DNA of 14,755 bases. Source: Candidatus Heimdallarchaeota archaeon B3_Heim (GTDB lineage: Archaea; Asgardarchaeota; Heimdallarchaeia; Hodarchaeales; Hodarchaeaceae). Of this stretch, positions 3,185 to 12,830 are shown piece after piece. The position numbers and the translations under genes were made by a program. Each line of letters begins with the position of its first letter. Position 1 is the stretch's first letter. A model generated the notes under the pieces. The model made no database searches. It was given only the letters and a program-made list of their open reading frames with translations, and was not told the DNA's origin. The stretch covers positions 1-14,755 of the forward strand of contig NJBF01000062.1 of NCBI GenBank assembly GCA_003144275.1, read 5' to 3'.

Positions 3185-3689
3185 TTTCTTTTCTCTCTAA
3201 TTTTTCTTCTTTATGGAACTACTACCAAGTGACATGATTTTGGGAATTGAGGTTAGAAAACCTACCTAACTATAAGATAAACCATATATCCCTCTTTACT
3301 TTCTCAAGCAAATTTGTATACAATTCTCCTCTTCATCAATTGTAACGAGAAATTGTGAAATTTATGGAGAATTGTGGAAAGGATCACGAATGACACTTTC
3401 CACATGAAACAAACGGTTTATTGCCTATTAGTACTTGGATCAAGAAGTACCAAAAGTCCATTTAATGCCTTATTAAAAATAGCTTTAAGATAATCCGCAT
3501 TAAAAAATTTAGTCGAGATACTTTTTTTTTTCAATGAGAATTTCTTTTGATCAATTGATCGTCGAGATTTGTACTACCTAATTCTATAATTATAAACTCG
3601 AATGTCTACTGTCATAAATATTGTTCTCACTTCATATAATCTTAGATTAGAGAATTTAGTATGAATCTTCTATAGTTAAAATTTTAAAC

Positions 3690-4051
3690 CATGATCATTT
3701 TTGTCCGACAAAGCGAGATTACTCGTATTCGCTAACCTCTCCCTCTCTCTTACATTCATAAAAAGCCTCCCTCCATAACCTCTTCCAAGTGAGGTGATGA
3801 AAAGAAAAATTCCTAAATTCTTGGGTTTTATTCACTTGTAACTACGTGAGACGAGTTACCTGTCAAAGGCAAGAGAAGAATGACCCTTTAGGCGTGAGAG
3901 GTATTAGCGCTGGGGATATCAGCAGTAAGGATGCTTCAAGTAGTCCCAATGAATAGTAACCCTTTTAGTGGTGCTAATCTGCCGGATAGCGGATGTGTGA
4001 CTCATCCTGTCCAGAACTCTTTTCAAGAGTTGTCTGACAAATCTAGTCATG
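3690..4051 (+). mobile_element. 362-bp non-autonomous MITE-like element, copy 1
   Basis: Reverse complement of 12462-12823, identical by base-by-base reading. Imperfect terminal inverted repeats CATGATCATTTTTGTCCGACAA / CATGACTAGATTTGTCAGACAA (17/22). No long ORF. Orientation is arbitrary. Confidence 0.85.
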
Positions 4052-4178
4052 AATTGATCAGAGGTATATTTATGAAATTACCAAATAACATCCTAATTGT
4101 TCCCTAGTTAGAGAGTGATTTAATCCTTATCTCACTATATACTCGTTTTATGCATTAATTTGAGGTTGCCTGATATTC

Positions 4179-11352: not shown

Positions 11353-11424
11353 CATGACTAAATTTGTCAGACAACGCAGTAAAACCGCGTTCTGGACAGG
11401 ATGAGTCATATATCCGCTATCCGG
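11353..11424 (-). mobile_element. Diverged right-end fragment of the same MITE family (copy 3, truncated)
   Basis: Aligns to 12462-12531 with three substitutions plus a replaced hairpin segment. Begins at CATG. No matching left end was found before the oxidoreductase stop codon. Confidence 0.8.
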
Positions 11425-11493: not shown

Positions 11494-12464
11494 TCAATCT
11501 ATGGCAATAACAACTCTACCTTTAGCGTGACCTGCTTCATAATATCGATGAGCATCTGCAGTCTGGCTTAATGGATACACTCGGTCAATAACTGATCTGA
11601 TCTTTCCTTCTTCAATCCATTCTCGTAATAAATTCAGATCACTGAAATCTCCGAGCATGCCGCCTTTCATTTTCTTGCTGGTAAATATACTAGTAATCAG
11701 TTGTAATCGATGTAATCTGGGATTAAAAAATCAACCGTTACGTAGATTCCTTTTTGAGAGAGAGAATTCTTACAATTCGAAAAATTGTTTTTTCCCACAG
11801 CATCAAATATGACATCATAAATTTGGCCATTTTTTGTAAAATCTTCTTTTGTATAATCAATCACGTAATCTGAACCGAGATCCTTTACCATATCTATATT
11901 ACTCGTACCGCATACACCAGTCACTTCAGTATCATATACTTTTTTAGCAATTTGGACAGCGAAGGTACCAATTCCTCCAGAGGCGCCATTGATAAGAACT
12001 TTCTGACCACCTTGAATTTGTGCTTTATCCTTGAGAGCTGCTAATGCGGGTATTGCACCTCCAACCACTGCTACTGCTTCTTGAAAGCTCATATTTTTTG
12101 GTTTTATTGCTATTCTATTATTTATAGGAAGGCGCATATATTCAGCACAAGCGCCTCCATTCATTGTTCCTCCATAAACTTGATCTCCTTCGTTAAATTG
12201 TGTTACTTTCCTCCCTACAGCGACTACTTCTCCAGAAAAATCCAGACCAACAACCTTCTTCCGTGGTTTTCTGATTCCAGTCGCTACTATTCTAAATACT
12301 CCAGATAATACCTTCCTACCACTCCGAAAAGTGATATCCAATGCTTGCATTGCAGAAGCGTAGTTTCTAATTAGGACTTCATTATCTTTAGGGATAGGTT
12401 TTTCTATGTCTTTCAGTTCAAGGACATCGGCGGTACCAAATTTTTCACATACTATTGCTTTCAT
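11494..12464 (-). pseudogene. NAD(P)-dependent oxidoreductase of the zinc-binding dehydrogenase (MDR/QOR-like) family, split by a 1-bp frameshift
   Basis: MKAIV...GLDFSGEV...VLINGASGGIGTFAVQIAK...YDVIFDAVG in one frame. The expected C-terminus (KIRSVIDRVYPLSQTADAHRYYEAGHAKGRVVI*) continues in the -1 frame to the stop at 11494. One extra T in the T6 run (11725-11730) gives a 323-aa protein. A sequencing error is possible. Confidence 0.8.
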
Positions 12465-12823
12465 GACTAGATTTGTCAGACAACTCTTGAAAAGAGTTCT
12501 GGACAGGATGAGTCACACATCCGCTATCCGGCAGATTAGCACCACTAAAAGGGTTACTATTCATTGGGACTACTTGAAGCATCCTTACTGCTGATATCCC
12601 CAGCGCTAATACCTCTCACGCCTAAAGGGTCATTCTTCTCTTGCCTTTGACAGGTAACTCGTCTCACGTAGTTACAAGTGAATAAAACCCAAGAATTTAG
12701 GAATTTTTCTTTTCATCACCTCACTTGGAAGAGGTTATGGAGGGAGGCTTTTTATGAATGTAAGAGAGAGGGAGAGGTTAGCGAATACGAGTAATCTCGC
12801 TTTGTCGGACAAAAATGATCATG
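12462..12823 (-). mobile_element. 362-bp MITE-like element, copy 2
   Basis: Inverted copy of 3690-4051. Its terminal CATG contains the ATG of the oxidoreductase gene. Confidence 0.85.
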
Positions 12824-12830
12824 GTAGTAA

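Follow-up and report, generated by a model that had tools for sequence, protein, structure and literature searches.

A 362-bp gene-less element with symmetric CATG ends, related to a TnpB-encoding insertion sequence of Hodarchaeales

The window, a stretch of 14,755 nucleotides corresponding to contig C67 of the genome searched (a 3.95-Mb assembly of 103 contigs, 36% G+C and 94% complete), contains two copies of a 362-bp unit. Judged from its alignments, this unit is a gene-less internal-deletion derivative of a tnpB-only insertion sequence (IS) of IS1341 type, within the IS200/IS605 superfamily. As a PATE-like, or standalone-omegaRNA, element it belongs to a class already described; guide-RNA-only miniatures of TnpB transposons are known, and the class itself is therefore ordinary. 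Two features are unusual. The first is a symmetric end architecture that departs from the definition of IS200/IS605 elements, with the same palindromic tetranucleotide, CATG, at both junctions. The second is recent mobility without any recognizable transposase. The reading that we prefer, with moderate confidence, is that the unit derives from a TnpB-encoding IS, carries a guide-RNA module, inserts at a V-CATG target (V, not T) with ends that would act as TAM and TEM, and would be mobilized in trans.

The miniature element, its parent and its relatives

The two copies in the window lie in opposite orientation and are 100% identical over 362 bp (BLAST E 1e-188; Table 1). The identity extends to 366 nt (3688–4053 versus 12460–12825), with two matching flank bases on each side. 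The unit starts with CATGATCATTTTTGTCCGACAA and ends with TTGTCTGACAAATCTAGTCATG. Its ends are inverted repeats with 17 matches over 22 positions (13 over 18 when CATG is left out); across the family the end-to-end match ranges from 17 to 18 of 22. Near both ends lies the palindrome TTGTCnGACAA, which is dimer-like and has arms of only 5 bp. CATG is present at all five ends visible in the window, and no longer direct repeat flanks the element at any of the 18 full-length copies examined in the genome. A third piece, the right-end fragment of Table 1, is 86% identical to unit positions 293–362 over 70 nt (BLAST). A first-pass annotation of this DNA, made from its letters, had described two identical copies and a diverged fragment, CATG at every end, no longer direct repeats and inner terminal repeats matching at 13 of 18, and all of these observations hold.

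Table 1. Features of the 362-bp family in the window, with short forms and a second tnpB family elsewhere
Feature	Position	Strand	Remarks
Left CATG, copy 1	3690..3693	+	Read as host target motif, TAM-like; preceded by C
Copy 1, 362-bp non-autonomous element	3690..4051	+	358 bp if the left CATG is host DNA
Left end	3690..3711	+	CATG, 7 nt, then 11-bp palindrome TTGTCCGACAA
Conserved left block	3712..3820	+	CTCGTATTCGCT, CT-rich run, A/T-rich TATA-like box, GAGGTGATGA; presumed promoter and leader
tnpB remnant, 36 nt	3835..3870	+	Just past RuvC-I GIDLG; full element 763–798 at 83–86%
Right 115 nt	3937..4051	+	Last tnpB codons LPDSGCVTHPVQNSF and right end; presumed omegaRNA scaffold
Hairpin 1, right module	3951..3979	+	3951–3958 pairs with 3972–3979
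Hairpin 2, AACTC / GAGTT	4015..4031	+	Directly upstream of right-end palindrome
Right end	4030..4051	+	TTGTCTGACAA, 7 nt, then CATG; TEM-like T before CATG
Right-end fragment	11353..11424	-	Diverged subfamily, TTTTTTCCGG type; internally truncated; ends in CATG
Copy 2	12462..12823	-	Identical to copy 1; right end abuts start codon of ORF 11697–12464 (-)
33-bp forms	G000:C8:64499-64531, C35:1462-1494, C50:11147-11179; metagenome contig L173:1114-1146		
Second tnpB family	G000:C82:50635-52296, C38, C61:21532-23188, C96, C63		No transposase partner

The family had been taken for an unrecognized one, possibly with a parent resembling IS4, IS5 or IS701. Neither idea survives. When left- and right-end motifs were paired within the genome, four intact elements of 1.41–1.42 kb were found to share their ends with the 362-bp unit; further full-element copies are cut by contig ends. 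The single open reading frame (ORF) of the full element encodes a TnpB of 417–420 aa, matching Pfam OrfB_IS605 and Cas12f1-like_TNB as well as NCBIfam guided_TnpB (215 bits); a 417-aa version is encoded at G000:C61:11104-12354. The ISs of the genome that do carry DDE_Tnp_1 have unrelated ends. Three blocks of the unit can be aligned to the full element: its left end (unit positions 1–22), unit positions 146–181, which match the full element within the tnpB remnant of Table 1, and unit positions 248–362, which match full-element positions 1303–1418 (85% identity). The translated tail of the unit matches TnpB residues 387–417 (tblastn). These three alignments and the retained tnpB tail are the basis for assigning parentage by internal deletion.

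The miniature copies have their left ~110 nt in common with the DNA that precedes tnpB in the full element, judging from an unaligned comparison, by eye, of the left ends of 39 copies. Further inside, at window positions 3833–3870, the RuvC-I remnant of tnpB forms a hairpin, GTAACT...AGTTAC. This block is the best conserved internal one in all miniature subfamilies, the copies being otherwise 67–77% alike, which suggests that it has a function in RNA or DNA beyond the standard omegaRNA picture.

The genome contains 48 matching pieces of the unit (BLAST). Among the full copies, five are 98–100% alike and 13 more are 67–79% alike; contig ends interrupt several others that are near-identical, and right-end fragments are numerous. 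A search with the end pattern CATGAYYANNTTTGTCNGACAA gave 65 matches in this genome versus 0 for its reversed control. Three other genomes of the genus have 61, 26 and 9 matches (the genome with 26 is G031 below) and none to the reversed control, and the pattern is nearly absent from the rest of the genus. Insertions are polymorphic between this genome and its sister G013, with flanks 93–95% identical. Because insertions differ between genomes across such similar flanks, and because copies are 98–100% alike, the family has moved recently, with clear mobility in at least three Asgard genomes. The annotation's view of a recently active non-autonomous element is thereby upheld, as it is by the empty allele of copy 1 described below.

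Shorter forms also exist. A 146-bp derivative lies at C57:96043-96188, and near-perfect palindromes of 33 bp (Table 1) consist of two element ends fused through the shared TTGTCTGACAA. The latter parallel the 52-bp terminal-only PATEs of Haloquadratum (PMC3119063), which arise by deletion between two near-terminal palindromes (PMC3119063). At G000:C82:62618-62630 (-), a miniature right end runs straight into ATCAAATTTG, which corresponds to the 10 outermost nt of a left end. This is a tandem remnant of the sort that insertion of a second copy at the CATG before a resident copy would leave. A right-end/left-end junction would read …TAGTCATGATCA….

The right-end CATG of copy 2 supplies, at 12462–12465, the ATG of a zinc-dependent alcohol-dehydrogenase-like ORF, 11697–12464 (-) (MKAIVCEKFG...). 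The whole native upstream region of this ORF has therefore been replaced by the element, and the presumed outward transcription of copy 2 runs into it. Targeting of start codons was considered and rejected: of 62 ends, 11 lie against an ORF of at least 60 codons that starts with ATG, versus 16% for random CATG.

Target sites, flanks and the right-hand module

Empty alleles were found for five insertions. Three sites occupied in G013 are empty in this genome (C74:~23158, C82:~110851 and C94:~2170), with one CATG when empty and two when occupied. At a fourth site occupied in G013, which lies in more diverged DNA, the empty allele reads TATG. The empty allele of copy 1 itself was found in a marine-sediment DNA run (X1), as a 240-nt contig that joins window position 3689 to 4048 and has one CATG. 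This contig skips 358 bp; five letters (CATGA) fit either side, leaving the position of the cut ambiguous within CATG(A). Thus, each empty allele holds a single tetranucleotide, CATG in four of the five and TATG in one, and CATG is the fixed palindromic target of the element. The annotation had predicted one CATG at empty sites, and had named empty sites lacking CATG and long variable duplications as the observations that would count against it. Apart from the single diverged TATG, its prediction was confirmed, and long variable duplications were not seen. The site of copy 2 is unoccupied in G013 and reads CATC, within a diverged leader, and therefore speaks neither for nor against the target.

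A single CATG at empty sites fits a staggered-cut duplication, an insertion in the manner of IS200/IS605 and a serine-recombinase crossover alike. The flanks, tallied in element orientation, are informative here; a few of the relatives' sites are orthologous. The base before the left CATG is A 18, C 14, G 4 and T 2 times in this genome and A 14, C 11, G 6 and T 2 times in relatives, giving T in 4 of 71 cases. In both T cases from this genome the end is degenerate and has lost its CATG. Genome-wide, T is the commonest base before CATG, preceding 37% of 10,223 occurrences. Outside the right end, the mirrored base is T in 19 of 38 cases in this genome and in 14 of 22 in relatives, and the left and mirrored right distributions differ (chi-square p = 1e-4). 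The target is V-CATG, and the element's own right end is T-CATG.

A difference between TAM and TEM has been described for IS200/IS605 elements, and the Geobacillus motifs differ at only two positions (PMC10055086). The oriented asymmetry fits this logic better than it fits a symmetric 4-bp duplication, and favours one CATG from the host and one from the element. Of the fixed palindromic CATG target duplication proposed in the annotation, the fixed target therefore stands, on the strength of the single CATG at empty sites, and the duplication is disfavoured by the asymmetric flanks. The asymmetry could also come from selection after insertion rather than from the chemistry of insertion; the pattern would be the same, and our confidence in one host CATG and one element CATG is therefore only moderate. 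A literature search returned no paper on CATG as a TnpB TAM.

The flanks bear equally on the proposal that the unit is a true MITE, whereby a DDE-type or similar enzyme would bind the 22-bp ends as double-stranded DNA and a 4-nt stagger would duplicate CATG, TnpB and its RNA being cargo as they are in the DDE-associated TnpB branches and in the Fanzor transposons of eukaryotes. A symmetric enzyme acting on a palindromic target predicts mirror-image flanks, but T is excluded from the left side, whereas among the mirrored right-hand bases it is the most frequent. No cargo other than tnpB was found between these ends in a survey of ~160 ends in four genomes and five metagenome matches, and the unrelated ends of the DDE_Tnp_1 ISs count further against this proposal. 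It does account for the symmetric inverted ends with their dimer-like palindrome and for a CATG present once at empty sites and twice at occupied ones. It also draws support from the failure to find a Y1 enzyme, and from the inverted terminal repeats reported for all six DDE-associated TnpB branches (PMC10691335). Taking both sides together, we regard it as rather unlikely.

In TnpB systems the guide RNA, or omegaRNA, shares sequence with the 3' end of tnpB and extends as far as the right end of the element, the flanking DNA providing its guide (PMC10691335, PMC10055086). An alignment was made of the terminal 140 nt on the right of 32 copies, full and miniature, drawn from at least five genomes. 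Its core, CAAGTAGTCCC ... CCGGATAGCGGATGTGTGACTCATCCTGTC, hardly varies; A134, G135 and T136 are invariant, and T precedes the right CATG in 32 of 32 sequences. Hairpin 1 shows compensatory changes at all six of its pairs, and hairpin 2 at three of four (CTC/GAG, CTAT/ATAG and CGCAG/CTGCG). Over the ten hairpin pairs, 88.8% of cells are paired; shuffles give 75%, and sliding the partners gives no more than 53%. For covariation the score is 0.433 versus 0.208, and 0 of 500 shuffles score as high. The covariation of the two hairpins supports a conserved folded strand in the right module, which would act either as RNA or as single-stranded DNA. A search of Rfam, at the gathering threshold and at E up to 1, returned no relevant family. 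Because the left block with its TATA-like box is kept in the miniatures, we infer that a miniature element could itself drive transcription of its guide module. In two runs with a metatranscriptomic label (X10 and X13), contigs cover only the right module of relatives (window 3855–4054), with word depths up to 160. Both runs are flagged as probably DNA, and the coverage is therefore not evidence of expression.

Our preferred reading assembles these elements as follows. Because it retains both 22-bp ends, a promoter-like left block and the 3' omegaRNA region, the 362-bp unit would probably make a guide RNA, the guide being the DNA just right of the element, and would be served by TnpB supplied by the full copies. 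Integration would take place at CATG in a fixed orientation relative to the 5-nt motif V-CATG. The left CATG would then be the host target (TAM) and the right T-CATG the terminal motif of the element (TEM), with no staggered-cut duplication. An empty site (TAM and flank) would be cleavable by the flank-guided TnpB and the occupied right junction (TEM and flank) would not, such that the T before the right CATG would protect an occupied site from the element's own nuclease. Movement itself would be carried out by an enzyme supplied in trans and absent from the assembly. Against this reading stand the ends, which are true inverted repeats (17–18 of 22) with palindrome arms of only 5 bp, where IS200/IS605 elements have asymmetric ends with stable subterminal hairpins (PMC4810608, PMC10691335). 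The failure to find a Y1 transposase in this genome and the absence of a canonical catalytic residue in TnpB also count against it.

The TnpB lineage and candidate mobilizing enzymes

The TnpB of the full element aligns to solved TnpB and Cas12f structures. The canonical RuvC-II glutamate is absent throughout the wider TnpB clade, in which LVIGYN replaces the usual E-containing strand. This wider clade conserves a glutamate in EESYTSK / (K/S/N)EAYTSQ, and the glutamate of (K/S/N)EAYTSQ may replace the canonical one. The resulting active site resembles the rearranged catalytic sites described in PMC10691335. Nuclease activity is plausible and, because the canonical RuvC-II glutamate is absent, not certain.

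The closest TnpBs outside the CATG-ended Hodarchaeales lineage are 27–36% identical. In tnpB-only relatives from Cyanobacteria and Firmicutes the right end is of the classic IS605 type, with TCAA after a hairpin, and one bacterial relative has an IS607-type serine tnpA directly upstream. Asgard relatives at 40–47% identity have IS605-type right ends, and a relative at 53% identity already ends in TTGTCTGACAA...AGTCAT. Judged by the ends of these relatives, the symmetric CATG ends appear to be an innovation of one Hodarchaeales lineage.

The annotation had placed the mobilizing enzyme outside the window; it was not found in the whole assembly either. The Y1 transposase (PF01797) has no match in this 94%-complete genome. 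Within the genus it is present in only 2 of 22 genomes; each copy is broken, and its neighbour is a different TnpB that has other ends. A single resolvase-domain gene is present in this genome, which encodes a 187-aa Hin-like protein and is unlinked to tnpB; G031, with 26 element ends, has no resolvase-domain gene. Cas1 is the proposed transposase of some Asgard TnpB elements. No match to Cas1 (PF01867) was found in this genome, nor in the neighbourhoods of the tnpB relatives examined, and the gene neighbourhoods of three more distant Asgard TnpB relatives contain no transposase neighbour. Among repeats of at least 300 bp, the other ISs of the genome are two DDE_Tnp_1 families, a family with a 470-aa ORF and a second TnpB family, none of which has ends related to those of the 362-bp unit. 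A scan of a species-level genome collection for TnpB relatives and a metagenome scan for left ends returned only tnpB-only elements, miniatures and one 33-bp form. Longer copies enclosing a transposase or recombinase, which the annotation had proposed to look for, did not emerge: the longer copies carry tnpB only.

Two solo left ends were considered as possible carriers of other cargo and rejected. One (C8:61897-64531) encloses an 842-aa host-like ORF, and the other (C82:78049) has degenerated to a terminal-only remnant and lies next to a broken transposase that is unrelated. The family with the 470-aa ORF is a 1.6-kb IS in two copies (G000:C31:8610-10216 and C30:3818-5423) whose inverted ends read GAGATTTCGCCTAGATTG; nothing in Pfam matches its ORF, which may encode an unclassified transposase. 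The second tnpB-only family is unrelated to the one studied here, and comprises five or more copies of a 1.66-kb element encoding a 430-aa TnpB with HTH_OrfB_IS605 (Table 1).

A serine recombinase could act in the manner of IS607, by excising a circle with a ~40-bp palindromic junction centred on CATG and recombining it with a target CATG across the central AT, to leave the core at both junctions with no duplication. In IS607, one and the same dinucleotide marks the ends and the target, and no duplication is made (PMC6188088); the closest non-Asgard TnpB (34% identity) lies directly behind an IS607-type serine tnpA. An intact IS607-type element of G013, whose TnpB is 36% identical to the one here and has the same rearranged RuvC-II motif, also speaks for this mechanism, but the ends of that element are unrelated and asymmetric. 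IS607 ends, moreover, lack terminal inverted repeats and have direct subterminal repeats (PMC6188088). With the single Hin-like gene of this genome unlinked to tnpB and no resolvase-domain gene in G031, we find the mechanism quite improbable.

The IS607-type element of G013 (L170; G013:C54:5509-8919) encodes a 195-aa serine TnpA and a 407-aa TnpB. Its site is empty in this genome (G000:C14:~21585-21591), where GTGATA occurs a single time, and each junction of the occupied site has one GTGATA; the core described for IS607, GG, is shorter.

The RuvC fold of TnpB resembles that of DDE enzymes, and it is conceivable that no dedicated transposase is involved, TnpB itself or a host enzyme cutting and joining. 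Recent mobility in three genomes without a recognizable transposase is in line with such a process, for which we know of no precedent. Haloquadratum presents the same paradox with its PATEs and tnpB-only elements, as has been noted (PMC3119063). For the IS608 and IS607 systems that have been tested, however, tnpA alone is both sufficient and necessary (PMC3119063, PMC6188088), and the assemblies are metagenome bins that are 84–94% complete, so that a low-copy or extrachromosomal transposase could be missed. We give transposase-free movement very little credence.

The known partners of TnpB are Y1, IS607 serine, DDE, Cas1 and tyrosine integrase enzymes. An unconventional account of the family would have a Hodarchaeales-specific TnpB lineage swapping the asymmetric IS605 or IS607 ends for symmetric ones on CATG, moved by an enzyme beyond these partners, conceivably TnpB itself, with the V/T difference as the sole safeguard against self-cleavage. 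We consider this account, taken as a whole, unlikely.

Relation to known systems and significance

The family is closest in outline to the PATEs and IS1341-type elements of haloarchaea (HqIRS families and ISHwa23; PMC3119063), which are likewise gene-less internal deletions of tnpB-only elements. PATEs also have near-terminal palindromes that may be identical at both ends, a 4–5-nt targeting sequence with no longer duplication, very short terminal-only forms, and mobility although intact IS200-type transposases are lacking (PMC3119063). PATEs, however, are defined as being without terminal inverted repeats, and their palindromes are not equidistant from the ends, the left one lying deeper inside. 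The 362-bp family, by contrast, has inverted repeats of 17–18 of 22, 5-bp palindrome arms and a palindromic CATG at both junctions. Among the hallmarks of IS200/IS605 and PATE elements, we find a TnpB (OrfB_IS605) parent and insertion at a 4–5-nt motif with a single motif at empty sites; asymmetric ends with stable hairpins and a Y1 (HUH) TnpA in the genome were not found.

The standalone omegaRNAs and PATE-like miniatures of Geobacillus ISGst elements (PMC10055086, PMC10691335) similarly keep their ends and guide scaffold, would depend on TnpB in trans, and have a TAM beside the left end and a near-identical TEM inside the right end. In the 362-bp family, TAM and TEM would differ only at the fifth position (V versus T). 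In Geobacillus, however, a Y1 TnpA with matching ends is present and has been shown to act, whereas none was found here.

IS607 (PMC6188088) shares with the family the same short core at ends and target, with no target duplication shown, and IS607-type elements in the same genus carry a TnpB of a related clade. IS607 differs in its GG core, its asymmetric ends with direct subterminal repeats and the presence of tnpA, none of which is seen here; in particular, no serine TnpA with an N-terminal MerR-like domain accompanies the 362-bp family. DDE-associated TnpB and Fanzor transposons (PMC10691335, PMC3627910) also have a TnpB-family nuclease within symmetric inverted repeats, but they or their close relatives carry a DDE transposase, and no such partner was found with these ends. 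The Cas1 homologue next to tnpB that marks the Asgard Cas1-associated TnpB transposons was not found.

The mobility of the 362-bp family without a recognizable transposase sharpens a question already raised by the haloarchaeal tnpB-only elements, namely what moves such elements. The preferred reading makes a specific prediction, which is that a single base, V or T before CATG, would separate cleavable empty sites from protected occupied sites. Finally, because their hosts are Asgard archaea, TnpB elements with inverted-repeat ends may be of some interest for the origin of the eukaryotic transposons that bear Fanzor.
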